Sequence record: PZ445448.1
DNA length: 64,000 nucleotides
Direction: 5' to 3' (one strand)
DNA from: a phage
This document shows positions 14,731 through 28,310 of this stretch, in pieces (position 1 is the first letter of the stretch; each line of letters opens with the position of its first letter). The translations under genes were made by a program, and so were the position numbers. The notes under the pieces are model-generated. The model was not told the DNA's origin, did no database searches, and was given only the letters and a program-made list of their open reading frames with translations.

Positions 14731-14868
14731 TATATGGGAATATTTTATGGGATACTGTTTTATAGGAAATTGTTACGGAGGGTAATTAGCATGCTAATTA
14801 AATTTATTAAATGCGAGGAGTTCTCATTTAGAATTTTGAATGATAATCATTCTCGTTTGCAGAATAAC

Positions 14869-14914
14869 GGGCAGGCCCGGTGATTGTCTCCCCCGTCACC
14901 GGTGCCTGCCGTCC
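14869..14914 (+). repeat. long palindromic hairpin; inverted-repeat copy A
   Basis: gggcaggcccggtga..tcaccggtgcctgcc; reverse complement of 14870-14894 matches 24494-24518 at 24/25. Confidence 0.6.
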
Positions 14915-15374
14915 TTTCGATAGGTATATTGTGCCACCTGGCGGGGCCGCTGTCAACACTTTTCAAAAAATTTTTCTAACCTGATGCGCTAACCGCTGCA
15001 ACCTGGCGGGGCCAGCCTGGCAGGACCTAACTGACCAGGTAGGAGAGAATGAAGGCTTGTAAACCTGGTGGGCCTATGCTATAGGACAGGTAACAATTGA
15101 AGAGGAGGTACAAAAATGAAAGGTAATGTGATCCCCTGGAAAATGTAGCTATTAATGACGCTGAGGCTATCGCCCTGGTTGAAAAGGCCATGGCGGGAGC
15201 GTTGGAACATAAAGAAGAGTACGAAAAAATGATGGTTAACCTGGTAGGGCGGCGGCAGGTGGATTCTATCATAAAAAATAATTTAAAATAATTGTTGACA
15301 ACCGGGGGAGTCCTGCTATTCTTACCCTACAAGGTGAACAACACCGCACTAACTAGTAAAGAGGATAAAAAATC

Positions 15375-15572
15375 ATGAACGCATACGGAATCAAAGTACG
15401 TCGCAACACTCGCCAGGTGGTCACCGATCAAGTGGTTTGCCTGGTGGATGTAACCATCAACAACGGGCAAGGCCTTTATAAATTTCGTCGCGGTCATAGC
15501 TATACCCTGCAACAGCTTAATCGTTGCGCCCTGACAAAAGGTCAGATCAATCACTGGTTTAATAAAAAATAA
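15375..15572 (+). CDS. hypothetical protein
   Basis: 65 aa; SD agaggataa; weak TTGACA promoter ~15295. Confidence 0.5.
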   Translation: MNAYGIKVRRNTRQVVTDQVVCLVDVTINNGQGLYKFRRGHSYTLQQLNRCALTKGQINHWFNKK

Positions 15573-15575
15573 GTA

Positions 15576-15604
15576 TTGACATACGCCCCGACACAAAATA
15601 TACT
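15576..15604 (+). promoter_or_regulatory. sigma70 promoter
   Basis: TTGACA-17 bp-TATACT. Confidence 0.6.
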
Positions 15605-15636
15605 GAAATCACAAAAGACACTAAGAGGATAAAATC

Positions 15637-16035
15637 ATGAAAACCACAACCTTTAATTTTGACAATGCCGACTTCTCTTTTTCTGATGTCAAGAACTGCC
15701 GCCGTGATCGTGGATTTTACAAGGCTTATAATCTGGTTGGCCTGGACGATGATAATAATTTGCACGAAGTAGCGGAGATCCGGTACTATGCCGCCGCCAG
15801 CGGTAACACTAACTACTGCGTTTTTTGGATACACGACAACAAGAACAATAAGTACGGTTATACTGGCGGCAAGGCGAGCGGTCACGGTTATGATAAAGCT
15901 AACGCAGCACTTGAGAGCGCATTAAATGCTATGGGGATCACTGCCAACGGCTGGATCTATGAAGAAGAGTTTTTGTCAGCACTTGCTGCCCACCTGGGGT
16001 ATAAAAAGCACATTGTGACATGCGCCCACGAATAA
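15637..16035 (+). CDS. hypothetical protein
   Basis: 132 aa; SD agaggataaaatc. Confidence 0.55.
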   Translation: MKTTTFNFDNADFSFSDVKNCRRDRGFYKAYNLVGLDDDNNLHEVAEIRYYAAASGNTNYCVFWIHDNKNNKYGYTGGKASGHGYDKANAALESALNAMGITANGWIYEEEFLSALAAHLGYKKHIVTCAHE

Positions 16036-16050
16036 AAAAAAAAAAAATTA

Positions 16051-16078
16051 TTGACACGCTGCAAAATTCAAGTAAACT
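16051..16078 (+). promoter_or_regulatory. sigma70 promoter with A-tract UP-like element and leader hairpin
   Basis: A14 run, TTGACA-16 bp-TAAACT, then hairpin ggcgggaaTGTttcccgcc (16089-16107). Confidence 0.6.
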
Positions 16079-16127
16079 ATACACAAAAGGCGGGAATGTT
16101 TCCCGCCAACACAAAGGAAAAAAGATC

Positions 16128-16523
16128 ATGAATAAGAACGTACGCCGCATCATGAACGAACTGGCAAACGATGAAAAAATTATTGATATGCATTTGGTCA
16201 ACATTTGCCGCCGTTGTGTAACATATAACAACCGCGCCGCAAAAGCGCGTGAGATGAACGCAAAAGGCACCTTAAAGCCCTTTCAGGTGGTTGTAAAATC
16301 TATAACCAGTGCAGCAGGCCAGGCGCATGACCACAACAACGGGAGCACTAATATTGATCCGTCTTACGTAATGAAACGGATCCGGACTTGCAAGAATAAA
16401 GAGCAGGTGTATAACGTCATAGATTGGCTGGACTCCCTGGGCGATGTGGTTTATAATAGGTTTTCTGCAGCTATCGAGATCCAGCTTGACAGACTGGACG
16501 GGAAAGTACTGAAAACTTACTAA
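16128..16523 (+). CDS. hypothetical protein
   Basis: Start at ATG 16128 after aaaggaaaaaagatc leader; track ORF starts upstream inside promoter. Confidence 0.55.
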   Translation: MNKNVRRIMNELANDEKIIDMHLVNICRRCVTYNNRAAKAREMNAKGTLKPFQVVVKSITSAAGQAHDHNNGSTNIDPSYVMKRIRTCKNKEQVYNVIDWLDSLGDVVYNRFSAAIEIQLDRLDGKVLKTY

Positions 16524-16524
16524 G

Positions 16525-16572
16525 TTTATTTTTAGATGGCCTTGACGCCAGGGCCATCAATAAAGTAAACTA
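16525..16572 (+). repeat. conserved ~45-bp hairpin element, copy 1
   Basis: tttatttttaGATGGCCTTGacgcCAGGGCCATCaataaagtaaact. Confidence 0.6.
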
Positions 16573-16602
16573 ATCCCAGTTAAGCTAAAAGGAGGCTTGA
16601 AG

Positions 16603-16722
16603 ATGAGCACTACACGCCAGCACACAAAGGTAACTATTATCGTTTGCATCATTGGTTATATCCTGGCGCAAATGTTGATGGGTAGCGCCAACGGTGTCGC
16701 AAAATTTTTCTTAAACTTTTAA
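16603..16722 (+). CDS. small hydrophobic peptide (39 aa)
   Basis: SD aaaggagg 7 nt before ATG; TM-like IIVCIIGYILAQMLMG; below ORF-track cutoff. Confidence 0.35.
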   Translation: MSTTRQHTKVTIIVCIIGYILAQMLMGSANGVAKFFLNF

Positions 16723-16750
16723 TTGACAAGCTAACTTAGATCGGTATACT
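16723..16750 (+). promoter_or_regulatory. sigma70 promoter with leader hairpin
   Basis: TTGACA-16 bp-TATACT; leader gggaaaacttccc. Confidence 0.6.
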
Positions 16751-16800
16751 AAACACATCAACGGGAAAACTTCCCAGAACACACAAAAGGAGAAAACACC

Positions 16801-17142
16801 ATGACCACTATGACCGCCGCAGAAAAAGCTATTCAGATCGCTGCCCTGAAAAAACAGATCGCAGACCTTGAGAATAAGATCGATAACTTTGAAATCGACG
16901 AGGACAAGTACGACGAAAACTATGATGAATGGTTAGACGAGATCTACGGCGAAATTATGATCGGAAACATTTCTTTTCTTCCGTCGCGTATCCTCAAGGA
17001 GCTAGATCCTATCGCTTACCGCTGCGGATTTAGCGACTACATCGACAGCCTGGATATTGAGGACGATGAAGAATACCAGGAATTACAGACAGAGTTGGAA
17101 GAAGCAAAAGAAGAGCTTGCGGAGCTGGAAGAAAACGAGTAA
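16801..17142 (+). CDS. highly acidic coiled-coil protein
   Basis: 113 aa, D/E-rich (DIEDDEEYQELQTELEEAKEELAELEENE). Confidence 0.55.
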   Translation: MTTMTAAEKAIQIAALKKQIADLENKIDNFEIDEDKYDENYDEWLDEIYGEIMIGNISFLPSRILKELDPIAYRCGFSDYIDSLDIEDDEEYQELQTELEEAKEELAELEENE

Positions 17143-17143
17143 G

Positions 17144-17190
17144 ATTATTTTTAGATGGCCTTGACTCCAGGGCCATCAATAAAGTAAACT
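17144..17190 (+). repeat. conserved ~45-bp hairpin element, copy 2
   Basis: Same stem GATGGCCTTG/CAGGGCCATC, loop ACTC. Confidence 0.6.
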
Positions 17191-17231
17191 TTATACTGTT
17201 AACACTGAACTAATGCATAGGAGTTAAAACC

Positions 17232-17477
17232 ATGGCAGCACTAATCACTAAATATTACGCCCCTACCAACACCAAAAGCGCCCGTATCATGGTAAAAGGC
17301 TTCGGACGTAAAAAGGTTTACACCTGGGATTATGCCTTAGACACGGAAGACAACTACACCAACGCGATGACAGATTTTATTAATGAGCTGAACACGCGGA
17401 TCTTGACAAATTATAAAATTACCGATATTGCCTATATAGGGGAAGGCGGGATCTGTTTTGTCGGTATCGTCAAATAA
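17232..17477 (+). CDS. hypothetical protein
   Basis: 81 aa; SD aggagttaaaacc. Confidence 0.5.
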   Translation: MAALITKYYAPTNTKSARIMVKGFGRKKVYTWDYALDTEDNYTNAMTDFINELNTRILTNYKITDIAYIGEGGICFVGIVK

Positions 17478-17488
17478 ACTGTTTTTTC

Positions 17489-17512
17489 GGTGGTCCTGGT
17501 AGCAGGGCCATC
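17489..17512 (+). repeat. diverged copy of hairpin element
   Basis: GGTGGTCCTG gtag CAGGGCCATC; stem kept through wobble-compatible changes. Confidence 0.45.
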
Positions 17513-17535
17513 TATAAAGATAGTTTATCAATACA

Positions 17536-17907
17536 ATGAAAGGAGAAAGTAACATGATCAGTGGGGCAAGTTTTATCATTGGCGCTATTGCTACGGCTTT
17601 AATTGTAAATAAGATCCAGGATAAAAAGGAAAGAGGAAGTACCGCCCTTGCAGAATATCCATTTTGGGCATTCAACGATAACGAAGATTATATTATAAAG
17701 TATAAAAATAAAGAAGGTGACCAAGTAACACCACGACCGATCCCGGCTTACAAAATGCAGGAAACACTATACCGCCTGGAGGCGGGTGGCGCAAAAATTG
17801 TAGACTTTTGGGGATACGACCACACAGATCAGGAAGTTATAAAGCGCCGTATCCGGGCTATTCAGGCCAATATTGAAGTTAGCAAGGGGGGAATATATGA
17901 AAATTAA
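17536..17907 (+). CDS. membrane protein
   Basis: N-terminal TM ISGASFIIGAIATALIV; SD aaaggagaaag. Confidence 0.5.
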   Translation: MKGESNMISGASFIIGAIATALIVNKIQDKKERGSTALAEYPFWAFNDNEDYIIKYKNKEGDQVTPRPIPAYKMQETLYRLEAGGAKIVDFWGYDHTDQEVIKRRIRAIQANIEVSKGGIYEN

Positions 17908-18094
17908 TTTCGAGAAAATTGTAAAGCGCCCTCATGATTCCGAAGAGCTGCCAGAACGCCGCCAGCGTAACAATAAACTGAATAAGCCAAAAAGGTTTGG
18001 GAAGATCTGGCGGAATCATTATGATCGTAAATTGCCGGGCCTACTTTTGGAACGTGAACGACAAGCGGAACGATACCGCCACAAAGACAAATAG
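17897..18094 (+). CDS. small basic protein
   Basis: Start at internal ATG after aagggggg SD; R/K-rich. Confidence 0.4.
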   Translation: MKINFEKIVKRPHDSEELPERRQRNNKLNKPKRFGKIWRNHYDRKLPGLLLERERQAERYRHKDK

Positions 18095-18099
18095 CAACC

Positions 18100-18130
18100 A
18101 ACGCCCCGCCATTGTGCGGGGCTTTTTATT
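18100..18130 (+). terminator. rho-independent terminator
   Basis: cgccccgcc attgt gcggggc followed by TTTTTATT. Confidence 0.7.
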
Positions 18131-18251
18131 TCTATCCTACGAATAGCGCCCCTGGTTGGCCCTGTAAGCGCCAAAAAGGCCCCCACCTATGCAATCGCCC
18201 CTTTAACCTGAAAACATCGCCCAGGGCCGTTTTATGGCGTTAAAAATATCA

Positions 18252-18279
18252 TTGACATCGTCAACAGGTTAGCTATACT
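18252..18279 (+). promoter_or_regulatory. sigma70 promoter
   Basis: TTGACA-16 bp-TATACT. Confidence 0.6.
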
Positions 18280-18311
18280 AACCACATCAAAGAGAGAAAG
18301 GAGTAAACGCC

Positions 18312-18572
18312 ATGCGTAAATTAAAAAATTTTGATAAAGTTGATGTTATCCTGAATAATTTTTACTACTGCAACAACAAGGCTATTTGGTGGCGTGATAG
18401 TTCCACCGATAAAGTCAAAGCGCGCTTTCTTCAGGGGCACTGGCAAGGCCGCCCAGTGATTAAAATCATGGGGCAATTGGTAGCGTTTAAAAATTGCCGC
18501 CGTGTTGATGACGTTGAGGAGATTTTAAACATTTTGCGCCACAATAATTTAAAAAATAGTGTTGACAAGTAA
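18312..18572 (+). CDS. hypothetical protein
   Basis: 86 aa; SD aaaggagtaaacgcc. Confidence 0.5.
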   Translation: MRKLKNFDKVDVILNNFYYCNNKAIWWRDSSTDKVKARFLQGHWQGRPVIKIMGQLVAFKNCRRVDDVEEILNILRHNNLKNSVDK

Positions 18573-18589
18573 ATCTCAATAAGTATAAT
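18562..18589 (+). promoter_or_regulatory. sigma70 promoter with leader hairpin
   Basis: TTGACA-16 bp-TATAAT; hairpin ggcgggaaaacttcccgcc. Confidence 0.65.
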
Positions 18590-18646
18590 TAAACACACAG
18601 GCGGGAAAACTTCCCGCCACTAACAAAGAAAACAGGAGAAAATATC

Positions 18647-19270
18647 ATGACCACCGTTAACATTACCACAGGTTACAATTTAGCTTTCGACGTGCTGACC
18701 GACGAACAAAAAGAAAAAGCCGTTGAAATGGTCCGCGAAAGAGAAGAACACAGCGGGGATAACTTTTTTGCAGAAAGTGTAATTGAAGACTATAAAGAAT
18801 ATATCTTTCCAGAGTATGGCCTTGAAGATACCGAAGTACATTGGTCCGGCTTTTGGTGCCAGGGCGACGGCGCATCAATCAGTGCGGAAAACGTGGATTT
18901 AGAAAAATTCTTGCGTAAAGTCAAGTCTCTGACTAAATTCCGCTCAATTCGTCACTTGTTCGGCACAATGCACGATGGCGAGCTATCCGCAAGTGTTGAG
19001 CGCGATCCATATAGCCGTTATAGTCACGAAAACACTGTAAGCGGGTACATCGATACTACATGGCTAGACCTGACCGCCAAACAAGAAAACAAAGTGGAAG
19101 ACCTGGAAGAACTGATCACCGAGACGGTACGGGAGCTATCCCGCAAGGTTTACGTAGACCTGGAGGAGGCCTATCTAGAACAGTTCACCGCAGAAAACCT
19201 GATCGGCCTTATCGAGGCCAATGATTGGCGGTTTGATGTCGATGAATATGGTGAGATGACTTTTTCATAA
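18647..19270 (+). CDS. hypothetical protein
   Basis: 207 aa acidic; SD aacaggagaaaatatc. Confidence 0.55.
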   Translation: MTTVNITTGYNLAFDVLTDEQKEKAVEMVREREEHSGDNFFAESVIEDYKEYIFPEYGLEDTEVHWSGFWCQGDGASISAENVDLEKFLRKVKSLTKFRSIRHLFGTMHDGELSASVERDPYSRYSHENTVSGYIDTTWLDLTAKQENKVEDLEELITETVRELSRKVYVDLEEAYLEQFTAENLIGLIEANDWRFDVDEYGEMTFS

Positions 19271-19278
19271 ATAAAGTG

Positions 19279-19306
19279 TTGCAATAACCTAAAAACCTGC
19301 TATATT
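19279..19306 (+). promoter_or_regulatory. sigma70 promoter with leader hairpin
   Basis: TTGCAA-16 bp-TATATT; hairpin gggggcaagacgtttgccccc. Confidence 0.6.
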
Positions 19307-19360
19307 AAAACTCAAGGGGGCAAGACGTTTGCCCCCACACAAAACAAAGAGGAAAACATC

Positions 19361-19741
19361 ATGAAAAACACTACTAAAGCTATTGACACTGTTATGTTTA
19401 ACCTGGTTACATTCCGTGAAGATATGAAAGATCTTCCACGTGAAACAGTGTGCGATCACATTGAAAACTATCGCAAACTAATCAAAGAGTTGCCTTTAAA
19501 ACGTGACCAGTATGCGGCTAACGCTATGCTTAACGCCATGATCAAAAAGATGATTCAGTGTGATTTAACTCTGGCCTATGATTATGCAGGTGGTCGTTTT
19601 GCAGTATACAATCAGCCCGTGCCTGGTATGAGCACCACCGAAGAATTGCACGCGTTAAATCTGAAACAAGATGTATGGGATAACATGCCCCGCGTGGTGG
19701 TGTGGGCAGAAAGCGGAAAGATTTACGGCGATAATTTTTAA
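19361..19741 (+). CDS. hypothetical protein
   Basis: 126 aa; SD agaggaaaacatc. Confidence 0.55.
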   Translation: MKNTTKAIDTVMFNLVTFREDMKDLPRETVCDHIENYRKLIKELPLKRDQYAANAMLNAMIKKMIQCDLTLAYDYAGGRFAVYNQPVPGMSTTEELHALNLKQDVWDNMPRVVVWAESGKIYGDNF

Positions 19742-19749
19742 TCAGGTAA

Positions 19750-19777
19750 CAGGCGGCATATTTGCCGCCTTATTGTT
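19750..19777 (+). terminator. rho-independent terminator
   Basis: ggcggca tatt tgccgcc then TTATTGTT. Confidence 0.55.
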
Positions 19778-19805
19778 AAACAGAACTGCAAAAGAGGTAC
19801 ATAGA

Positions 19806-20177
19806 ATGGAATTTATTATTTTGGCTGTAGTAGTTGCCTTGTTCAACGCCTGGATCGCTGGCAAGATAGGTAGATCCGCTTTTCTATGGTTTGTTATATC
19901 TATTTTCCTGGGAGTGGTTGCAACTATTGTATTGGTTATCCTTGCAATTGTTGACAAGGGCGATAATAGAAAGGGTAAAGTGTTTTCCGACCTGTATGAC
20001 GCACAAACGTTTGTCAACGCCTATTATAGTGATCTTCCAGTCTCCCTACGCTGCAGCCTGGCACAACAGGTTTTTGATGAGGCTAAAACCAGAGACCAAG
20101 CCCATGAGATATGTTTAACTGAAGCGGATCGCCTATTTGAGAGGAATAGAAAATATGTGGACCAGCCGTTTAAATAA
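19806..20177 (+). CDS. membrane protein
   Basis: Start at ATG 19806 (SD agaggtacatag); two hydrophobic segments. Confidence 0.5.
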   Translation: MEFIILAVVVALFNAWIAGKIGRSAFLWFVISIFLGVVATIVLVILAIVDKGDNRKGKVFSDLYDAQTFVNAYYSDLPVSLRCSLAQQVFDEAKTRDQAHEICLTEADRLFERNRKYVDQPFK

Positions 20178-20396
20178 CGCCACGTTAATTAATCCCTTTA
20201 GTGAAGATTTGAAGCCAGCCGCCTGGCGTGACGGATTCAATAACGAACGCTTTATTTTCAGGCCTGATCTTGAGGAATTTTATAACAATGGATCGAACAA
20301 CAGCGGAGATAATTTTTCTTGTGGTGTGCGTGGTGATAGGACTCCTGGGGGCCATTGTAAACCACGTCACTACTAACAGGAGGGAAGGGGGAGACG

Positions 20397-20516
20397 ATGA
20401 CAACCAAGGATAAGCCATGCGCTGATAAGGTGCGCCGTGTTATGGTATGGCTTGAGATTATCGCCCTTGAAATATTGTTAGGCGTAGGGATGTACTTTAT
20501 CGCTGTAAGTAACTAA
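20397..20516 (+). CDS. small hydrophobic peptide (39 aa)
   Basis: Strong SD aggagggaaggggga; TM-like VMVWLEIIALEILLGVGMYFIAV. Confidence 0.35.
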   Translation: MTTKDKPCADKVRRVMVWLEIIALEILLGVGMYFIAVSN

Positions 20517-20518
20517 GA

Positions 20519-20550
20519 GCGGCCCCCGATCATGGGGGCCTATCTTTTAA
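20519..20550 (+). terminator. rho-independent terminator
   Basis: ggcccccgatcatgggggcc then TATCTTTT. Confidence 0.6.
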
Positions 20551-20570
20551 AAAATTTTTCTTCCGGGGTG

Positions 20571-20598
20571 TTGCAATCCGGTCCGGAATGTGGATAAT
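20571..20598 (+). promoter_or_regulatory. sigma70 promoter with leader hairpin
   Basis: TTGCAA-16 bp-GATAAT; hairpin ggggagctaatcccc. Confidence 0.6.
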
Positions 20599-20654
20599 AA
20601 CAATCAACGGGGAGCTAATCCCCACCACCACAAAAACCAGAAAGGAGAAACAAA

Positions 20655-20855
20655 ATGAGCAACAATATCCGCGTTATTAACTTCAAAAAAGAAGAAAAAA
20701 TTGCCGTGCTGATTGACGGTCAAGAAATCTTCAAGGGCGACTATGAAGATCATCAAACGGCGATTAGTATCACTCGCGTGATTGGTTATCATAATTTCTA
20801 CCCCCAAGGCGCTGAGGCAGCAGTTAAACGAATCAAAGAGATTGTAGGCCTGTAA
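20655..20855 (+). CDS. hypothetical protein
   Basis: 66 aa; SD aaaggagaaacaaa. Confidence 0.55.
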   Translation: MSNNIRVINFKKEEKIAVLIDGQEIFKGDYEDHQTAISITRVIGYHNFYPQGAEAAVKRIKEIVGL

Positions 20856-20856
20856 A

Positions 20857-20905
20857 ATTTATTTTTAGATGGCCTTGACTTCAGGGCCATCGATAAAGTA
20901 AATTT
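20857..20905 (+). repeat. conserved ~45-bp hairpin element, copy 3
   Basis: Same stem GATGGCCTTG/CAGGGCCATC, loop ACTT. Confidence 0.6.
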
Positions 20906-20948
20906 AAACCCTGTTAAAATACCACGCAGTTAACAAGGAGTGATAGAC

Positions 20949-21248
20949 ATGTTTATCCAGGCTAATAATCTTTATTTCTTTGATGGTCAGATCGTAGATG
21001 GTGTGGAAGTGGAGATCACCGGGTGCCCTGGCGGTCAGGCTATGACTTTTCGGAATAATGCCTTTGATGATTCTCATATCGTTATGAGAATGGAAGTTAC
21101 GAAGCTGGACGACAAGAAAACACTTATTGACTATTCTGTGAAAGATCATCCAGACTACCGCATGATCCATGGTGATTTGTGCATTGTTGACCGTGACAAG
21201 GTGGGCGGCATTGTGATCGCTATTGTGAACGATGTTTTCTCAAACTAA
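20949..21248 (+). CDS. hypothetical protein
   Basis: ATG 20949 with SD aaggag 8 nt upstream. Confidence 0.5.
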   Translation: MFIQANNLYFFDGQIVDGVEVEITGCPGGQAMTFRNNAFDDSHIVMRMEVTKLDDKKTLIDYSVKDHPDYRMIHGDLCIVDRDKVGGIVIAIVNDVFSN

Positions 21249-21265
21249 TTTCAGCAGGCGATTTT

Positions 21266-21616
21266 ATGAAAGTCAAACTATATTACCTTAATGAGCTTAA
21301 CCCCCTTGCCCAGGTCCGCGCCCTAGCTAATACCTTGATTTGTGAGAAATCTGTATATTGTGTTGAGCTTAACGCCATGCGTGAACGTCTCAAAGGTGGT
21401 TACTTTGACATCCATGCTGCAATCAACGGCCTGAATATGGAATTTATACGCTTACGTAACAGCCGCCGGAATCTGGCAAGAATGGAACAAGATCCGGCCC
21501 ACCTTCGTAAGCTGGTTATTGAAAATCATCTGATGTTTAATGCCGAGGGTGATTATTACCATTTTCACCGCAAACGCTGGTACCGTGGCGGCAATACAGG
21601 CAAGAATGCAAAATAA
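21266..21616 (+). CDS. hypothetical protein
   Basis: 116 aa basic ORF. Confidence 0.5.
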   Translation: MKVKLYYLNELNPLAQVRALANTLICEKSVYCVELNAMRERLKGGYFDIHAAINGLNMEFIRLRNSRRNLARMEQDPAHLRKLVIENHLMFNAEGDYYHFHRKRWYRGGNTGKNAK

Positions 21617-21650
21617 GGCCCCTAGCAGGGCCTGCAGCAATATAATCACA

Positions 21651-21684
21651 TAAAGGCCATGCGGTTGCATGGCCTTTATTATTT
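21651..21684 (+). terminator. rho-independent terminator
   Basis: aaaggccatgc ggtt gcatggccttt then ATTATTTT. Confidence 0.7.
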
Positions 21685-21733
21685 TGGCGTTACAACGGCA
21701 TACGGGGCGCTTAAAAAATTTTTAAAGAAGTAC

Positions 21734-21761
21734 TTGCATCATTCCCGACAATATGGATAAT
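21734..21761 (+). promoter_or_regulatory. sigma70 promoter with leader hairpin
   Basis: TTGCAT-16 bp-GATAAT; hairpin gggggaggccccc. Confidence 0.6.
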
Positions 21762-21818
21762 AAGAGTTGTCGAGGGGGAGGCCCCCAATCGTTGACCAGA
21801 TAGATAGGAGTTAAAATC

Positions 21819-22103
21819 ATGGCTATTGTTACCGCTGGCGATGTAGTAGAAATGGAAGCAAAATACTTAAAAGCGGGTATGCACATCCTACGGAATGATC
21901 AAGAGTTATTATTAACGATGGTTGACTATAATCACGGCCAGGATTATCCAAGCATCGACTACTTTTTTGAGTATGTTGATGAAGAGTTGAAAGAGGATGA
22001 GGCCTATTGCGGTGAGTTCTGCAACTTCTTTTGTCCTGATGAGGTTGTAAAGGTTATTTATCAACCTGGCGTAGCTTTCCCGCTGCACGCTATCAATAAA
22101 TAA
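21819..22103 (+). CDS. hypothetical protein
   Basis: 94 aa acidic; SD ataggagttaaaatc. Confidence 0.55.
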   Translation: MAIVTAGDVVEMEAKYLKAGMHILRNDQELLLTMVDYNHGQDYPSIDYFFEYVDEELKEDEAYCGEFCNFFCPDEVVKVIYQPGVAFPLHAINK

Positions 22104-22158
22104 ACCTGGCGGGGCCGAAAAGGCCCCCAATTATGAAAATAAAGAGAGGCAAATCATC

Positions 22159-22392
22159 ATGATGGAACAAATTAAACGCGCCGAGGCTATTAATGGCAAC
22201 GTGATCTATTTTGTCAGCAAAAACGAAAAAGGCGTACCATATGCGGCAGTAATAGTACAACCTGACGGCGATTATTGGTTTACTGTGTACGGCGCTTATT
22301 CTTTTGGGCGTCCAGTGCATGATAAAATTTTGAAAGTAGCGAACCCTACCGGGAAGAATATCACAGCAGAAAAATTTTTTGAAAATAGTTGA
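22159..22392 (+). CDS. hypothetical protein
   Basis: 77 aa; SD aagagaggc. Confidence 0.5.
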   Translation: MMEQIKRAEAINGNVIYFVSKNEKGVPYAAVIVQPDGDYWFTVYGAYSFGRPVHDKILKVANPTGKNITAEKFFENS

Positions 22393-22416
22393 CATGACCA
22401 TATAAGACTGTAATAT
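22389..22416 (+). promoter_or_regulatory. sigma70 promoter with leader hairpin
   Basis: TTGACA-16 bp-TAATAT; hairpin gggggcaactaacccc. Confidence 0.6.
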
Positions 22417-22467
22417 ATAAATCAAAGGGGGCAACTAACCCCACCAACTACAAAGAGGATAAAAATC

Positions 22468-22647
22468 ATGGCTATTATTGCAAAGACTGAGATCGTAGGC
22501 TTAGATTCTATTCTCCTCGCATATGAGGAAGCTATAGAAATGTATGTGGTTTCCTATGGTGAGTATATCCGTGAATATAAATCTATTGATCTGGCTTTTG
22601 AATGTTATATCCGCCAGGTTAATAAAGCGTACGATGATTATCGTTAA
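22468..22647 (+). CDS. hypothetical protein (59 aa)
   Basis: SD agaggataaaaatc; below ORF-track cutoff. Confidence 0.4.
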   Translation: MAIIAKTEIVGLDSILLAYEEAIEMYVVSYGEYIREYKSIDLAFECYIRQVNKAYDDYR

Positions 22648-22653
22648 AATAGT

Positions 22654-22682
22654 TTGACAACAGCCATCTTACAAAGCATAAT
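22654..22682 (+). promoter_or_regulatory. sigma70 promoter with leader hairpin
   Basis: TTGACA-17 bp-CATAAT; hairpin ggcggtggaatggtccgcc. Confidence 0.6.
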
Positions 22683-22734
22683 ACATAAGGCGGTGGAATG
22701 GTCCGCCACCTGGAACAAAGAAGAGGTAAACACC

Positions 22735-22980
22735 ATGAAAAGCAATAAAGGTTATAACGGTTACAAAAACAAAACTCATTGGAATGTAAGCCTTTGGATT
22801 AATAACGATGAGTCATTGTACCGGTTGGCCCAAGGCTTTATTAACGCCAATGCTAATCGTAATGATGCGGCGCGGGATATGATGCTTTTTCTGGAGCTAA
22901 CCGGACAAGATAAGACCCCGGACGGCTTCAAGTACAGCACTACGGCGATCCGTGCCGCGATGGTTGGAATGAAACACTAA
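22735..22980 (+). CDS. hypothetical protein
   Basis: Start at ATG 22735 after agaggtaaacacc leader. Confidence 0.5.
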   Translation: MKSNKGYNGYKNKTHWNVSLWINNDESLYRLAQGFINANANRNDAARDMMLFLELTGQDKTPDGFKYSTTAIRAAMVGMKH

Positions 22981-23057
22981 AAGCACATAGCTGCCTTACC
23001 CTGGGGCTGTGGTAGCGGCCCCATGAATAAGGTTACTAACAGAAGAGAATAAACACC

Positions 23058-23162
23058 ATGAAACAGAAATTAATCGATGCAGTGATCTTGGTTATTGCCC
23101 TGGGTATTGGCCTGATTGCAACCATGTCTAATATGATCTTGTCTTCCAACGGTATCGGGTGA
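23058..23162 (+). CDS. small hydrophobic peptide (34 aa)
   Basis: SD agaagagaataaacacc; TM-like AVILVIALGIGLIATM. Confidence 0.35.
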   Translation: MKQKLIDAVILVIALGIGLIATMSNMILSSNGIG

Positions 23163-23171
23163 GGTTGGCAA

Positions 23172-23387
23172 ATGATCACTAACAAAACAGGCAAAACGGA
23201 ATTTTTACGCAACTTACAGATCGGCAAGCCTGAGATCTGGTACTGCACTAAAACACCACGTGACGAAATGAAAGACTTCACCGCCACGCTGCAACGGGTA
23301 AAGATATCTATCACGCAGAAAAAGGCCTTACTAGTGGTGGAAGGGGAGATCCCCCAAACCGTTGTTATAGTTGAGCGTACAGCATAG
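23172..23387 (+). CDS. hypothetical protein
   Basis: 71-aa ORF. Confidence 0.45.
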   Translation: MITNKTGKTEFLRNLQIGKPEIWYCTKTPRDEMKDFTATLQRVKISITQKKALLVVEGEIPQTVVIVERTA

Positions 23388-23478
23388 TTTAATTTATACA
23401 GATACCTGAAAATTAACCAACAAAGCATAAACAGGCGGTTACCGCCGCCTTAAACGTAGCAGAAAGAGGATAGACACA

Positions 23479-23763
23479 ATGAAAAAGATGATCGCAGTGG
23501 TTACCCTGGTTGTTGGACTTAATGCGCCTGTAATGGCTAAAGAGCTGGCAAAAGAGGTTAATCTAACGGATATTCATGCCGTCAATCAAATCGGGGTTAC
23601 TTATCGCTTATGCCTTGCCGCTAAAACTTTTAAGGACGGCACAACAGAGTACTACGGATTCGAGGGTATCCGGTGCGGTGAGCTTGCTCGCGACCTTAAG
23701 GAAGATCCAGACCTGGAGGATCTGCCCATAACCGTGAACGGAAAAACTTACGTGAACCGTTAA
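23479..23763 (+). CDS. secreted/periplasmic protein
   Basis: Signal-peptide-like MKKMIAVVTLVVGLNAPVMA; SD agaggatagacaca. Confidence 0.55.
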   Translation: MKKMIAVVTLVVGLNAPVMAKELAKEVNLTDIHAVNQIGVTYRLCLAAKTFKDGTTEYYGFEGIRCGELARDLKEDPDLEDLPITVNGKTYVNR

Positions 23764-23765
23764 CC

Positions 23766-23900
23766 ATGAGAAAGATAATTATTACCATGGGGATCGTGGC
23801 GGCAATGTTGGCGATCTTTCCCTTTATGGTTAGGTATGTGCTGATTAATGTTGTCCTGGTAGTCAGCGATCTGGTGTTATATATTAACTCATTGTTTTAG
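23766..23900 (+). CDS. small hydrophobic peptide (44 aa)
   Basis: ATG overlaps upstream stop; TM-like ITMGIVAAMLAIFPFMVRYVLINVVLVV. Confidence 0.3.
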   Translation: MRKIIITMGIVAAMLAIFPFMVRYVLINVVLVVSDLVLYINSLF

Positions 23901-23908
23901 GCGCGATA

Positions 23909-24100
23909 ATGACAGCGGAAGAAGTTAAAAAAGTACTGGCGGTACTGCGTTATCATAATCATTGCAAGGTGAAGAATGATCCTGATTATCTTGATTCATC
24001 CCTTGAAGAGGATACACTACAAGCCATAAGCAACATGCAAGAATTGCTTAAGCGTATGACAGAGAAAAACCGACCGGACTACATAGGGGGTAAAATATGA
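23909..24100 (+). CDS. hypothetical protein
   Basis: 63-aa ORF. Confidence 0.45.
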   Translation: MTAEEVKKVLAVLRYHNHCKVKNDPDYLDSSLEEDTLQAISNMQELLKRMTEKNRPDYIGGKI

Positions 24101-24408
24101 TCGCTATTACGCCAACCGTTTTAGATTGGTATCGGCAACGCATAGCGCCTCCGCTGGCTATCTTCAAAGATGCGGAAGCAAAACAACGCCGGATCTCAAT
24201 ACATGAGATCATCAACCTTAACGCTGGAGGCACACCATACCGCCCAGGACCTGGCCGTGAGATGGACAATACATTGGCGATCCTGAAGATACGCCGTAAA
24301 CGGTCCTCCCTTACGCTGGATTCATTACACACAATGCAGTCCCCGTTCCAGGTGACTGGGAAACGGATCGCCAGGTCCTGGACAAAGGCCAATGACCGGA
24401 CCGTATAA
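24097..24408 (+). CDS. hypothetical basic protein
   Basis: 103 aa, R/K-rich, ATGA overlap with upstream gene. Confidence 0.45.
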   Translation: MIAITPTVLDWYRQRIAPPLAIFKDAEAKQRRISIHEIINLNAGGTPYRPGPGREMDNTLAILKIRRKRSSLTLDSLHTMQSPFQVTGKRIARSWTKANDRTV

Positions 24409-24493
24409 ATAAAAAGTGTTTTGGTACTGATTTTGGGGTTGACTTGTTCGGCCCCTTTTGCTATTCTTATTAAACGGGCGGCACTTGGGAACA

Positions 24494-24518
24494 GGGGGAG
24501 ACAATCACCAGGCCTGCC
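24494..24518 (+). repeat. inverted-repeat copy B
   Basis: gggggagacaatcaccaggcctgcc = reverse complement of 14870-14894 with one mismatch. Confidence 0.6.
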
Positions 24519-24543
24519 TGTCATATAAGAACTATAAAAACCG

Positions 24544-24572
24544 TTGACATCTGCCAGGGGGTGGGGTAACAT
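24544..24572 (+). promoter_or_regulatory. sigma70 promoter with leader hairpin
   Basis: TTGACA-17 bp-TAACAT; hairpin ggggcaaaggtgccc. Confidence 0.55.
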
Positions 24573-24626
24573 TTATCTTGAAGGGGCAAAGGTGCCCACA
24601 CAACAACCAGAAGAGAGGAAAACACT

Positions 24627-24899
24627 ATGTCAAGCTGGATTAATCAAGAAGTCGAATCACGTTTTAATGCTATTTGGGATCTCATCGAAAAAGAAGACGG
24701 CACATCAAGCCCCTACCTCAACAATTTGGAATTCCATTTTGTGGAAGCGATGAACGCAGAACATGATCACGAAGGTGGTGCGGACGAGTTCGCTAAAGGG
24801 TATGGCTTCAACAATGCCAACGAAATGATCGAGGCGGTTGTACTCCAGGCTGAGGAAGATTATCAATTAAAAACGCTTGAATTCTGCCGCCGTAAGTAA
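24627..24899 (+). CDS. hypothetical protein
   Basis: 90 aa acidic; SD agagaggaaaacact. Confidence 0.55.
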   Translation: MSSWINQEVESRFNAIWDLIEKEDGTSSPYLNNLEFHFVEAMNAEHDHEGGADEFAKGYGFNNANEMIEAVVLQAEEDYQLKTLEFCRRK

Positions 24900-24959
24900 T
24901 AAGATAATGACACGGGCCGGGAGGCCCACTAATCAGAACCACACAAAGAGGTAAACATC

Positions 24960-25223
24960 ATGAAACGTCTTGATCAGCTTAAACTAGTTCAGTACATGGC
25001 CTACAAAGTTCTTGAAGTCCAAAAAGGTAGCAAAAAAGAGGTTTGCGAGAAAGCATATAAGATCTTTACCCGTAAAAAAGATGATTGGATGTTACGCCAG
25101 ACCAAAAAAGCCGATATCCTGGGATACCTGGAAGAAGAGATCCGACTTGAAGAACAAGAAGAGATCCGCCGTAGTGAGGCAGATTATCAGGCAGCTTGGG
25201 AAAACTGGATGAGCAACAAATAA
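24960..25223 (+). CDS. hypothetical protein
   Basis: 87 aa; SD agaggtaaacatc. Confidence 0.5.
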   Translation: MKRLDQLKLVQYMAYKVLEVQKGSKKEVCEKAYKIFTRKKDDWMLRQTKKADILGYLEEEIRLEEQEEIRRSEADYQAAWENWMSNK

Positions 25224-25289
25224 TACAACAAGTTACATGGTCAGGGGCAATAAAGCCCCTTGATCACATAAAAATTATGCTATCCCTGG

Positions 25290-25318
25290 TTGACAGGGAT
25301 CGGCAGTTTTGCTATATT
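25290..25318 (+). promoter_or_regulatory. sigma70 promoter
   Basis: TTGACA-17 bp-TATATT. Confidence 0.6.
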
Positions 25319-25367
25319 CTTTTTTGAAGGGAAGTTGTAAGAAAATTAACTAAGAGGTAAAAACACC

Positions 25368-25787
25368 ATGAACATTAAATCTAATAATCCGGCATATAGC
25401 TTTGATAACGCTTTTTGTCACGGTCCGGCGGCGAAAGGATTCGAAATCGATGGTAAACTAATTATTGTCAATGTTGACGGGGAAGAGGTTGCAGTATATC
25501 CGGTGGCAGACGTAAAAAGCCGTTTACAATGCCGCATGGATGTTACCGCCTATCAGCTTGATCCGGTCCGCATAGTTGCCCTGGTCCTGGAAGAAGAAAT
25601 TAAAGCCATGCACCATAGCAACAGATTTATTGGTGACGCGCAGGATAATATGAAAGTATGCCGCCATAAAGTTAATGAAGTGCTTAAAGAGTACGGCTAT
25701 AAAGATCTTATGATCAAACGTGAGGAAAAATTCCGCTACCGTAACGACCTGGCAAATCGGATTTTTGAAATATACGAATCATTATAA
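25368..25787 (+). CDS. hypothetical protein
   Basis: 139 aa; SD agaggtaaaaacacc. Confidence 0.55.
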   Translation: MNIKSNNPAYSFDNAFCHGPAAKGFEIDGKLIIVNVDGEEVAVYPVADVKSRLQCRMDVTAYQLDPVRIVALVLEEEIKAMHHSNRFIGDAQDNMKVCRHKVNEVLKEYGYKDLMIKREEKFRYRNDLANRIFEIYESL

Positions 25788-25810
25788 TTTTTTAACTGAA
25801 TTATCAAGGG

Positions 25811-25839: not shown

Positions 25840-28310
25840 TCCTCCTACCACAAACGGCCCAGCCTGGCAAGTGGAATAATTGACTAGCCATCAATCCCAC
25901 ACACTGTACAAATATACATGGAAAATAACTATTGCATAATTTTTCATTGTGTGGTAGCAGGTCCATTTTTACCCGTTTTCTCTCTCAAAATTGCACGTAA
26001 TGCCGCTATTGCACAAAATTTAACCTGATGCACATCTTCAATATCTTGTCAACAACTAAAAATCTTTATAAGTCATACACTTACACACTCACAAAAGCGT
26101 GTTCTACGTGAAAAATCGAGTATAACTATAGCCGCCAGATCTCAGAATTTACGTACGCTCACCATTCTATAGTCTGCTAAGTATTTATTCCAACCATGGA
26201 ATAACGGAATAGTCAATACCTGCATAAAATAATTATTCGTGTAAACTGCATAACATAAATCAGCTCAGGTGTCAACATTTTTCGTAAACAGTCCGAAATT
26301 GTCACGGTGAGTTATCATAAACAGAGAAATATTTAGTCGTCTAATGTTTACTGTACATTACTATACTGACTGGAATCATTAGATGACTAAGAGAAAGATA
26401 AGAAATAATTAACAATACAATTATTTTATCTGTAACAATAAGGCAACTATGCAAACGAATGGCATGGCGCGACGGAGTCGCGACATAATATAAAAGCAGT
26501 AACCATCACCCCCGTGATAGTTTGTCTGCAAACTATTAATCAGATCATAGTTGCCTTGTATTTAGTTAATCATGACATAACAAGCAAGGCAACTATAGAT
26601 CTTCTAATAGTTGCCCTGCTTTTATATTATGTCATAGAAACACCCGAAGGGGTGACCAAAGGTCACCTGGCATGGCCAGTGAAAGATTATTAACTTGTTA
26701 ATTGTTAACTTGCTAATTGTTTTCATGCAAACGAATGTCATGGCTTATCCTATCTGTGTAAACAGTCAAGGTGTAAACTATCCAGGCGTAAACAATCTAT
26801 ACGTGAACAGTGAAACATGAAATAATAACAGTCGTTATTGTGTCGAAAGTGTATAAGGTGTCATAGTATGTCAGACAAGTTTTTCTCCTCTTTGTCAAGT
26901 GCTGCATGAAAAATTTACAAGCTTGTATGGTAGCATTTTTGCTGCCCTGTTTACATTCAGTTGTGTATGTATAACCCTTGTTGTGTGGGCGTTTAGACGT
27001 CTAGACGGTTGGAAGTCCGCAGGTTAATATCTAATCTATTGGCTGCTAACTATATCCCACACAAATAGTAAGAAATATAATTGTTATGTGCGTAAACAGT
27101 AACTCATGTTATCAATCCCTGTATGTATCGCCAGTGGTGCGCATAATGGGTATTATGTTAAATTGCCCGTAATGATAACTATTCTCACAATGATAGGTAT
27201 TCTCATTCACTCCCACAAGATAGGTTGCAAATGTTGTGCCACTGTGTGAACGGCCTCACCTATTAATTTGCCTCACTGCCTCGATATTTGAGAATTGTTA
27301 TAAGAATGAGAAGTATTCCCATTTCGTCCGCCTGGCAGCACTCCAGTCGCTACCGCTCATGACAGGGCAGAACTAGACCCTCTTCAGATATTTCTGGCTG
27401 ACTCTTCAGGCCTGTGTGGGAAAAGCCAACCTCTCCGGCGGCGGGGAGGGGTTTGTCAGGAAAATTGCAGGTCAATTAAAAAATTTACGTGGTATATGAA
27501 GCGCTCTTCAGGTAAGGCATGTATTATGGGATGAAACCCTCTTCAGGCAATGATATTTGTGGGTGTGATATTTGCTGGAAAGCCAGATATGACGGGACTC
27601 CCGGCGGGGCAGGGGTAGTACAGACAGGGGAAATATGGAGGATGTAGTTGGGGGAGTTGATCAAACAGGTAGAGTATGGAATATGTTACAAGTATGTTAA
27701 ATATGGAGGGTGGATATCTGTAGGATTTATGTGTAAAATCAAAGACTTAAGTGGTGTTGTGGTATTTTCTATAAATAATTCAAGTTTAATAGGTAATATT
27801 TGTCTCTATCCGCTTTGTGTGGTAAACAAATTCAGATGGTGTTGGTTTACAAGTGTATACATAATATACAAATTAAAGATACAAGAAACCCCCCTCCCCC
27901 TTCGGCTACCATTCACCTTTTCCTCTGACTGGTACTTAAACACTTATTCAGACTCTTCAGGTTATCACCCATATATCATATGGCAGTGACTGGTGTCCTC
28001 CGGCCCCTCTTTCGTCACCCGTCCGCTTCGCCATGCTAATGCCATAGCCAATGGTTCGGTTGTTCACCCTGTTCACTCAGGTGTATCTCCATACCCCTTC
28101 AAACCGAAGAGAACAGAAAACCCGAATTACTCGGTAAAAGAAAAGAGAAGAACTTAATTTTATCAGGATAGGCAAGAATGTCAAGGCATGACTGCTCACT
28201 AAACAAGCAAACAGTCATGTGTGGGAGGTAAGTGATTGTGGTGGTAGGAAATTTAGTTGAAAGATGTGTTATAGGTGCTCCCAGCACTTTAGCCGGGTAG
28301 CTAATTGTGT
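25840..28310. repeat. 2.5-kb repeat-rich noncoding convergent intergenic region
   Basis: No convincing ORF; GGCAACTAT/ATAGTTGCC inverted repeats, GGTGACCaaaGGTCACC palindrome, GTAAAC clusters, CTCTTCAGG x5-6, G-rich motifs. Confidence 0.6.

Follow-up and report, generated by a model that had tools for sequence, protein, structure and literature searches.

Why should the early region of a phage set the same few elements, a promoter, a short GC-rich hairpin and an A/C-rich leader, before one small gene after another, and what might the hairpin do there? We addressed this question in sequence record PZ445448.1, of which a stretch of 64,000 nucleotides (nt), hereafter the window, was analyzed. 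It derives from an rV5-like myophage of E. coli (Vequintavirus), and the repeated arrangement occupies the ~10-kb early region at 15290-25370, where ~30 small genes coding for proteins of 34-207 amino acids (aa) are all co-oriented on the + strand. This region is 98% identical to its counterparts in the deposited Vequintavirus genomes vB_EcoM_12A_SA_NWU, MaxTheCat and isim, and 94-95% identical to those of rV5 derivatives. We find that the cassettes, their promoters and the RNA structure that they carry are well supported, and we infer from their layout that the hairpin stabilizes the mRNA at its 5' end.

On the + strand of 15290-25370, 12 sites match TTGACA-N16-18-TATAAT at 10 or more of the 12 positions, and ten of them lie directly upstream of a gene; the - strand has none, against an expectation of 1.63 +/- 1.32 from dinucleotide-preserving simulations. 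The array of consensus promoters proposed in a first-pass annotation, made from the letters alone, is thus borne out. Counting by hand yields 15 promoters, with the addition of a composite element (P1) and of the units with weaker TTGCAA, TTGCAT or TTGAAT elements (J, K, M, Q). An A/T-rich stretch (20 nt of A/T runs) precedes each of the 15, and every -10 is followed after 6-8 nt by a pyrimidine-purine step, which is the usual start context of sigma-70 promoters. Of the 33 sigma-70-type promoters that were predicted for rV5 in its genome paper (Kropinski et al., 2013, PMC3606486, Table S4), nine are orthologous to promoters in the array (P164, P168, P174, P185, P186, P192, P194, P195 and P195A); those of units J, K, M, O and Q are not in that list. 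The Gotham record has 14 PhagePromoter sites annotated in the corresponding region and says nothing of a leader hairpin or an A/C-rich linker. The literature searched yielded no transcriptome or start-site data for Vequintavirus or Phapecoctavirus. The units are listed below, each with its -35, spacer length and -10, the offset in nt of its hairpin from the -10, the orthologous rV5 promoter where there is one, and the gene that follows.

15295..15374 (+): unit A, TTGACA-16-TATTCT; weak hairpin 15333-15345 (GGTGaacaaCACC), offset 10, then leader and Shine-Dalgarno sequence (SD); rV5 P195A; gene 15375-15572 (+), 65 aa
15576..15636 (+): unit B, TTGACA-17-TATACT; no hairpin, A/C-rich 5' untranslated region (UTR) of 26 nt; rV5 P195; gene 15637-16035 (+), 132 aa
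16051..16127 (+): unit C, TTGACA-16-TAAACT; hairpin 16089-16107 (GGCGGGAAtgtTTCCCGCC), -13 kcal/mol, offset 10, leader aacacaa-AGGA; rV5 P194; gene 16128-16523 (+), 131 aa
16723..16800 (+): unit E, TTGACA-16-TATACT; hairpin 16763-16775 (GGGAAaacTTCCC), offset 12; rV5 P192; gene 16801-17142 (+), 113 aa, net charge -26
18252..18311 (+): unit H, TTGACA-16-TATACT; no hairpin, UTR of 26 nt; rV5 P186; gene 18312-18572
18562..18646 (+): unit I, TTGACA-16-TATAAT (12 of 12 positions); hairpin 18600-18618 (GGCGGGAAaacTTCCCGCC), offset 10; rV5 P185; gene 18647-19270 (+), 207 aa, net charge -26
19279..19360 (+): unit J, TTGCAA-16-TATATT, TG-extended; hairpin 19316-19336 (GGGGGCAAgacgtTTGCCCCC), -14 kcal/mol, offset 9; gene 19361-19741
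20571..20654 (+): unit K, TTGCAA-16-GATAAT; hairpin 20609-20623 (GGGGAgctaaTCCCC), offset 10, leader accaccacaaaaaccagaaa; gene 20655-20855
21734..21818 (+): unit M, TTGCAT-16-GATAAT; hairpin 21774-21786 (GGGGGaggCCCCC) with outer cga...tcg from 21771; gene 21819-22103
22389..22467 (+): unit N, TTGACA-16-TAATAT; hairpin 22427-22442, offset 10; rV5 P174; gene 22468-22647
22654..22734 (+): unit O, TTGACA-17-CATAAT; hairpin 22692-22707 (GGTGGAatggTCCGCC) with outer pairs at 22688-22711; gene 22735-22980 (DUF7249)
24435..24467 (+): P1, terminator-like hairpin 24435-24455 followed by TTTT; -35 TTGACT inside the hairpin, -10 TATTCT
24544..24626 (+): unit P2, TTGACA-17-TAACAT; hairpin 24584-24597 (GGGCAaaggTGCCC), offset 11; rV5 P168; gene 24627-24899
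24877..24959 (+): unit Q, TTGAAT-17-TAAGAT; hairpin 24914-24927 (GGGCCgggaGGCCC), offset 8; gene 24960-25223
25282..25367 (+): unit R, hairpin 25282-25300 over the -35 (TCCCTGGttgacAGGGA); TTGACA-17-TATATT, TG-extended, no leader hairpin; rV5 P164; gene 25368-25787 (+)

In ten of these units (C, E, I, J, K, M, N, O, P2 and Q) the main stem of a hairpin built from a G run and a C run begins 8-12 nt past the -10, and unit A has the same layout in weak form; these 10-11 hairpins fold at -4 to -14 kcal/mol. A scripted test with a limit of dG <= -4 and a start at offset 8-12 after the -10 recovered such a hairpin in 8 of the 15 units, against a background of 7.7% at arbitrary window positions (P ~5e-6). 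The number rises to ten upon hand correction of the -10 coordinates of M and Q and use of the inner stem of O, or to 10-11 if A is counted. An automated module scan errs on the conservative side and misses units with a weaker -35; the list curated by hand serves as the reference. The conserved hairpin structure and position claimed in the first-pass annotation therefore hold for about two-thirds of the units and fail for B, H and R, where there is no leader hairpin. B and H resemble the cassette minus its hairpin because their 5' leaders measure 26 nt, against 43-51 nt in the hairpin units. P1 is a composite of terminator and promoter, with ~70 nt downstream of it devoid of an open reading frame (ORF). 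Units K and M (20571-20598, 21734-21761) share an unusual promoter form, with a TTGCAA or TTGCAT -35 and TGGATAAT around the -10, and each directly follows a strong terminator, as though opening a new transcription unit.

The segment between hairpin and SD has a strongly biased composition (A 57, C 25, G 11, T 8%). The 20 nt before the SD contain 69% A+C in the array and 48-50% in the other genes of the window (P = 5e-7), with T at 18% versus 29-33% elsewhere in the window (P = 2e-6). In all hairpin units 20-32 nt separate the end of the hairpin from the ATG. Read directly, the 8 nt on the 3' side of the leader hairpins hold 0-3 U, typically ACACAAAA; as there is no U tract, the leader hairpins are by sequence not intrinsic terminators, and this function is rejected for the + strand.

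The strand on which these hairpins fold best is informative as to the molecule that carries them. Of the unique hairpins, 19 fold more stably as sense RNA and 6 as antisense RNA (p = 0.018); the difference arises from the wobble pairs, which are G·U on the + strand. Such a bias points to a sense-strand RNA structure and speaks against a cruciform, an antisense terminator or an operator in double-stranded DNA. It also bears on the proposal that each hairpin, together with the T/G-rich complement of the A-rich initial region, stops leftward transcription arriving from the - strand block. That block (28-64 kb) does point at the array, some leader hairpins (C, I, J, K and N) come out of a consensus scan as weakly terminator-like on the - strand, and the authors of the rV5 genome paper expected a bidirectional terminator at the junction and found none (PMC3606486). 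However, folding on the + strand is systematically better owing to the G·U pairs, the antisense tails are U-poor in many units and in nearly all modules of the related phages phAPEC8 and alia, and the two gene blocks are already set apart by a ~2-kb non-coding gap and a terminator at 25806. We therefore regard antisense termination as very improbable.

Several other candidates were tried and rejected. Antitermination sites akin to lambda nut/boxB, or sites for any loop-specific binder, do not fit loops that lack a consensus and are the fastest evolving part of the element. The 5-8 bp stems of the leader (class-1) hairpins are too short for RNase III. DNA-hairpin promoters of the N4 type were dismissed since rV5-like phages encode no RNA polymerase (PMC7344957). 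A putative hairpin in the promoter spacer of unit A was non-significant.

We compared the cassettes with GenBank phage records (IMG/VR had just two close relatives) and measured divergence from the window in ten Vequintavirus relatives (L001-L010). It is lowest in the -35 (0.6%) and the -10 (2.9%), followed by the hairpin stem and the SD (4.4% each), and higher in the promoter spacer (7.6%), the linker (10%) and the segment from -10 to hairpin (11%), with the loop at 24%. Thus, promoters and hairpin stems are under purifying selection. The conservation of the hexamers, together with the promoter predictions for rV5 and Gotham, fits the earlier suggestion of strong independent expression of many small genes, as far as sequence can indicate it. 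Individual units illustrate how the pairing is kept: the loop of Q is GGGA in the window and AAAA in eight relatives over an unchanged stem; loop bases of K have come to form one more G-C pair; J has exchanged an A-U pair for G·U and gained a G-C pair, and in another relative both of its arms are shorter by one base through a symmetric deletion; and O retains pairing through a register shift. Changes that weaken the stem are seen in C and N of L002 and in I of L004. In two relatives unit N has been swapped for a non-homologous promoter, hairpin and gene, and the offset of the new hairpin is again 10.

These patterns also bear on the possibility that a shared regulator binds the hairpins, as RNA or as DNA inverted repeats (around +3 to +25), and shuts off or boosts the early cassettes together at the early-to-middle transition. 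Overlap with the start site is a classical operator position, and so are the sites over the -35 or in the spacer where related phages have the repeat. Many phAPEC8 and alia hairpins share GGGCGGCAatrgTGCCGC or GGCGGGAAAtggTTTCCCGCC, and in the window C, I and E share GGCGGGAA/TTCCCGCC. Yet, in the window alone the stems are of no fewer than seven unrelated sequences and the loops of ten kinds, the loops being the least conserved columns; the G·U pairs and the sense/antisense asymmetry disfavor a double-stranded DNA operator; and no repressor or RNA-binding gene is recognizable among the array proteins by Pfam or PHROGs. Binding sites for a shared regulator were one of the two roles suggested in the first-pass annotation; with hairpin sequences varying from unit to unit and such loop divergence, this role is poorly supported, and we consider it improbable.

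The layout extends beyond Vequintavirus with other hairpin sequences, at no fewer than eight intergenic sites in phAPEC8 (Phapecoctavirus) and at least nine in alia (Justusliebigvirus), where the offsets range over 7-13 with a mode of 10. Altogether, in ~28 modules from three genera the hairpin begins 7-13 nt after the -10. The 20-mers annotated in phAPEC8 as putative promoters by PHIRE are the leader hairpins themselves, e.g. gtaGGGCGGCAATGGTGCCGC: the features at 556-575, 937-956, 1787-1806 and 3202-3221 correspond to GGGCGGCAATGGTGCCGC hairpins downstream of sigma-70-type promoters. We found no description of leader hairpins in the literature searched. Cronobacter phage CR9 (Certrevirus) has its hairpin in the promoter spacer instead (TTGACA-c-GGGGCCnnnnnnGGCCCC-ATAAT, spacer 18-19 bp), for example at 222-290, 2795-2864, 4280-4351 and 8210-8287, and the same A/C-rich leader follows. 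The CR9 layout recalls promoters with an operator in the spacer.

The leader hairpins are not the only structures of the region. Its U-tract terminators, at 18103, 19751, 20521, 21650 and 24435 (the last within P1), are separate from them, and other GC-rich hairpins stand before genes without a promoter.

18103..18122 (+): intrinsic terminator, GCCCCGCcattgtGCGGGGC then TTTTTATTT
19751..19770 (+): intrinsic terminator, AGGCGGCatatttGCCGCCT then TATTGTT; rV5 t184; downstream of it genes 19806-20177, 20155-20376 and 20397-20516 (+)
20521..20540 (+): intrinsic terminator, GGCCCCCgatcatGGGGGCC then TATCTTTT; rV5 t181
21650..21679 (+): intrinsic terminator, 13-bp stem then TATTTTGG; rV5 t177
22111..22127 (+): promoterless GC hairpin, -14 kcal/mol, no U tract; before gene 22159-22392
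23002..23023 (+): promoterless GC hairpin without U tract, -17 kcal/mol; upstream of small membrane ORF 23058-23162 and of gene 23172-23387
23433..23450 (+): promoterless GC hairpin, no U tract; before genes 23479-23763, 23766-23900, 23909-24100 and 24097-24408

The three promoterless hairpins are kept in the relatives, again with conserved stems and variable loops. This conservation suggests that hairpins matter inside read-through transcripts too. A second structural class is formed by a ~53-nt intergenic element present in four copies, each a two-tier hairpin in which an A·U lower stem (10-13 bp) is joined through a 2x3 internal loop to a GC upper stem (10 bp) capped by a tetraloop.

16521..16573 (+): class-2 copy 1, -25 kcal/mol, z-score -7.3; before 39-aa membrane ORF 16603-16722
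17140..17193 (+): class-2 copy 2; before gene 17232-17477
17475..17527 (+): class-2 copy 3, the most divergent, -27.6 kcal/mol on the + strand versus -11.3 on the -; followed by genes 17554-17907 and 17897-18094 (T7 gp1.1-like) (+)
20854..20907 (+): class-2 copy 4; before genes 20949-21248 and 21266-21616

The copies fold at -20 to -28 kcal/mol (z-scores -5.7 to -7.4), and far worse on the - strand. With a covariance model, four copies and no more are recovered from the window and likewise from every complete Vequintavirus locus, and none from phAPEC8, CR9 or alia. Pairs 4-54, 5-53, 7-51 and 8-50 covary, the upper stem varies only through G·U, and the divergent copy at 17475..17527 has compensatory and G·U changes in both stems. 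These elements are annotated in databases as 45-nt features, labeled terminator in Murica and promoter in Gotham; neither label fits, as the hairpin comes after the U-rich run and the -35-like TTGAC is missing from one copy. With about two helical turns of sense double-stranded RNA (~23 bp), an internal loop and an intercistronic position, they look like RNase III processing sites. The terminators, the promoterless hairpins and the class-2 elements all went unmentioned in the first-pass annotation.

Such elements invite the reading that all the hairpins act between cistrons, blocking 3'-5' exonucleases or marking processing, and that their adjacency to promoters is incidental. Read-through is expected, because most of the promoters follow an upstream stop codon with no terminator in between, and a sense-strand GC hairpin is found in nearly every intergenic region, with or without a promoter. 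The four class-2 stems, in their length, covariation and preference for the sense strand, are typical of RNase III substrates, and the early mRNAs of phage T7 provide a parallel, as their segments carry hairpins left by RNase III and are stable. However, this reading leaves unexplained why the hairpin comes after rather than before the promoter, why its offset is confined to 8-12 nt and why the linker is poor in U and RNase E sites; it also needs a cut downstream of the hairpin for a 3' end to be created. We consider it rather unlikely as an account of the leader hairpins.

The explanation that we favor, with somewhat less than an even chance of being right, is that each cassette combines a 5'-proximal, mRNA-stabilizing hairpin with a structure-free ribosome landing zone poor in RNase E sites, and also serves as a recombination linker. 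The host RNA polymerase would start at the pyrimidine-purine step 6-8 nt past the -10, so that 0-6 nt would separate the hairpin from the 5' end. A hairpin in that position would hinder 5'-end-dependent attack, by RppH and then RNase E, as do the stem-loops of ompA and papA. The linker, unable to pair with itself because it is made of A and C, would keep the SD open as a ribosome standby zone. RNase E sites favor U, and a U-depleted linker would offer few of them. With the hairpin ending outside the ribosome footprint (20-32 nt before the ATG), the hairpin, the bound ribosome and the U-poor linker together would leave RNase E little to attack. In read-through RNA the leader hairpins, the promoterless hairpins and the four two-tier hairpins would punctuate the polycistronic transcript and protect its segments. 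Because the cassettes resemble one another, they could in addition provide the homology for deleting and inserting small genes and for swapping them between phages. Phage control of RNase E has precedents: T7 gp0.7 inhibits the enzyme and T4 Srd stimulates it (PMC4980113), and rV5 gp11 has been reported as an Srd homologue (PMC3606486); this gives a rationale for the shielding of early phage mRNAs.

Several observations weigh against this explanation. In several modules 3-6 unpaired nt would be left at the 5' end, enough for RppH, so that protection is possibly partial. The strong promoters B, H and R lack a leader hairpin, and the conserved hairpins of promoterless regions imply that a 5'-terminal position is not required there. 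The CR9 hairpin, being placed in the spacer, lies outside its own transcript. The hairpins of Stephanstirmvirinae fall into two or three sequence families with similar loops, which could reflect sequence-specific recognition or recent copying between cassettes. The fixed offset could stem in part from common descent of the cassettes, and the 5' ends are deduced from the promoters, as the literature searched contains no start-site or half-life data for rV5-like phages. The promoterless hairpins, CR9, the unpaired 5' nt and the Stephanstirmvirinae families are the reasons why the rival explanations keep appreciable weight. The role of 5'-end mRNA stabilizer put forward in the first-pass annotation agrees with the geometry (0-6 nt from the likely 5' end) and the U-poor leader, and the promoterless hairpins and the CR9 spacer hairpin weaken it. 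A bolder and rather doubtful extension is that the hairpin and U-poor leader form a mark of self, sparing early mRNA while RNase E, in a burst of activity induced by the phage, destroys host mRNA, or that a dedicated factor reads the hairpin to switch the array off; either would amount to an RNA-level code for discrimination or timing across Vequintavirus, Phapecoctavirus and Justusliebigvirus.

As to the proteins that the cassettes would express, the first-pass annotation had called them host-takeover or anti-defense candidates of unknown function, and the latter still stands: Pfam and PHROGs, run on 26 proteins, gave just two Pfam matches, to a T7 gp1.1-like family (17897-18094) and to DUF7249 (22735-22980), and every PHROG match was to a family of unknown function. 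Sequence searches of the PDB with three array proteins gave no match. The products of 16801-17142 (113 aa) and 18647-19270 (207 aa) are highly acidic, with a net charge of -26 each and pI values of 4.1 and 4.4, and have no sequence match to solved structures or named families. DNA-mimic anti-restriction proteins are extremely acidic too. ARAGORN detected no tRNA genes, and no known RNA family was found anywhere in the window with Rfam at gathering thresholds.

Some features of the surroundings deserve mention. The sign of the GC skew flips at ~27-28 kb, at the start of the convergent - strand block (28-64 kb). Between the convergent blocks, at ~25900-28100, lie ~2.2 kb of nearly ORF-free DNA with a GC content of 0.39 and iteron-like short tandem repeats at 26686-26797 and 27171-27205. 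The Gotham record places a terminal repeat ~1.5 kb past the last gene of the array, within this interval, which may on that basis be an origin or genome-end region. The motif AAACCTGGYGGGSCC occurs three times (14999, 15061 and 22102, +), against 0.02 expected, each time right after a stop codon and at the base of a GC hairpin. Two segments, at 14850-14965 (-) near the left edge and at 24430-24545 (+) near the right end of the array, form an inverted homologous pair; both have a promoter with its -35 inside a GC hairpin, then a conserved structured GGGGGAGACAATCACCnGGCCTGCC stretch and no ORF. The copy at 14850-14965 (-) folds at -33 kcal/mol (z-score -4.8) and, judged by this predicted fold, may be a small RNA; the + copy (P1) is degenerate.

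If the favored explanation is right, the region supplies at least ten natural, interchangeable and insulated cassettes, each with a strong promoter, a 5' stabilizer and a structure-free ribosome landing pad. They would account for the strong simultaneous expression of dozens of small early genes, for the survival of early mRNA during degradation of host mRNA, and for the swapping of genes between phages without broken regulation. The cassettes are potential parts for synthetic biology, and the genes that they drive are candidates for host-takeover and anti-defense screens. Two annotations can be corrected: the PHIRE promoters of phAPEC8 are leader hairpins, and the 45-nt features of Murica and Gotham are two-tier RNA hairpins.

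Gene exchange at the cassettes is apparent among relatives that are 92-98% identical and differ in gene content. In YP-6, an exchange that joined promoter I to promoter J has removed gene I; in L010, promoter H is split by a 585-bp insertion between its -35 and -10, and other relatives have a duplicated -35 in promoter H. Several replacements begin at N, O, P or Q. About 15 of 30 indel breakpoints are intergenic, against 22-27% of the sequence, the events being few and non-independent. Promoter H (18242-18280) appears as a hotspot in comparisons with L003-L006, L002 and L010.

Similar behavior is known from the promoter-early stem-loop (PeSL) elements of the T4-like phages RB49/phi1, PST/T4 and nt-1/KVP40 (Arbiol et al., 2010, PMC2839356; Comeau et al., 2014, PMC4122927), a precedent that, like the role in recombination, is absent from the first-pass annotation. 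A PeSL combines AT-rich DNA and a strong sigma-70 promoter with a polyG/polyC stem-loop, an SD and an ATG (PMC2839356). PeSLs flank ORFans in hyperplastic regions, mediate modular shuffling, with excised mini-circles as a further mark, and fall into five subclasses by the position of the stem-loop (PMC2839356, PMC4122927). The stem-loop was proposed to be a terminator or attenuator, and one of them cut lacZ expression as much as rrnB T1 (PMC2839356).

If this applied unchanged to the array, the stem-loops would attenuate or terminate upstream transcripts and so level expression, the cassettes would be mainly shuffling linkers, and the hairpin would have no role at its own 5' end. The identity of the parts and the lacZ result count for such an account, as do the breakpoints within cassettes, the conserved promoterless hairpins, and the match of P1, the R hairpin over the -35 and the CR9 spacer hairpin to PeSL subclasses. 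However, the few U after the leader hairpins are the opposite of a terminator tail, separate U-tract terminators lie upstream of K, M, H and P1, and a terminator 3' of its own promoter would abolish the transcript of that promoter. Moreover, the hairpins keep to their place after the -10 in ~28 modules of three genera rather than lying anywhere in the intergenic space. We regard this account as unlikely, though it is the strongest of the rivals.

Compared with known systems, the proposed stabilizer has its closest functional counterparts in the 5'-terminal stem-loops that stabilize the E. coli mRNAs of ompA and papA (Emory, Bouvet and Belasco, 1992; Arnold et al., 1998; as cited in PMC3997798). 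As described there, these are stable hairpins a few nt from the 5' end with an efficient ribosome site after them, which is also what we propose for the array, and they depend on structure and position, not on sequence, much as the array keeps its stems, leaves its loops free and differs in stem sequence between units. They differ in being single host genes with experimental proof; the array comprises at least ten phage units with predicted 5' ends, some of them maybe with 3-6 unpaired 5' nt. A stabilizer of this type is expected to begin within ~0-4 nt of the 5' end, and its removal to shorten the half-life through RNase E and RppH. For the class-2 elements, the parallel is T7, where Dunn and Studier are said to have found RNase III processing sites between the early genes. 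Like those sites, the class-2 elements are intercistronic two-tier hairpins on the sense strand, ~23 bp in all with an internal loop, in an early operon read by the host polymerase; they have no sequence similarity to the T7 sites, and Rfam gives no match for them either.

At the level of the promoters, rV5 and Certrevirus, whose early promoter AAAA-N3-TGTTGAC-N19-TATAAT is concentrated in a small-ORF region (PMC7344957), resemble the array in clustering them in an early region of small ORFs; the Table S4 and Certrevirus papers report hexamers only, with no leader hairpin, A/C-rich linker or class-2 element. As single genes with their own promoters, the units also resemble the morons of lambdoid phages. 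Morons, which sometimes have their own terminator, are isolated insertions, often in the opposite orientation and without conserved flanking linkers, whereas the array units are co-oriented, tandem and standardized.

The most extensive likeness is to the PeSLs, with which the array shares the whole list of parts, including a G run/C run stem-loop with G·T pairs, the dense repetition before small ORFans in a variable region and, in a few events, indel and replacement breakpoints inside cassettes between close relatives. Like PeSLs, the cassettes have a promoter, a stem-loop, an SD and the ATG of a small ORFan in a hyperplastic region, and PeSL subclasses with the stem-loop over the -35 (compare P1 and R) or downstream of the -10 both occur in the array. 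The name applies by analogy and not by lineage, since the genome is a Vequintavirus and PeSLs are from T4-like phages, the array being of Vequintavirinae. The stem-loops of RB49/phi1 mostly lie between the -35 and -10 or over the -10; in two-thirds of the array cassettes they lie 8-12 nt after the -10, inside the predicted transcript. The terminator role fails on sequence for the leader hairpins, which have no U tract and run into a U-depleted, A/C-rich linker. The array is therefore a set of PeSL-like cassettes and not a new kind of system, the cassette concept and the promoters being already known; new here are the fixed 5'-proximal hairpin, the leader depleted in U and G, the occurrence of the layout in three genera and the RNase III-like elements. 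If the stabilizing role is correct, the PeSL idea would reach beyond the T4-like phages and acquire a function at the level of RNA.

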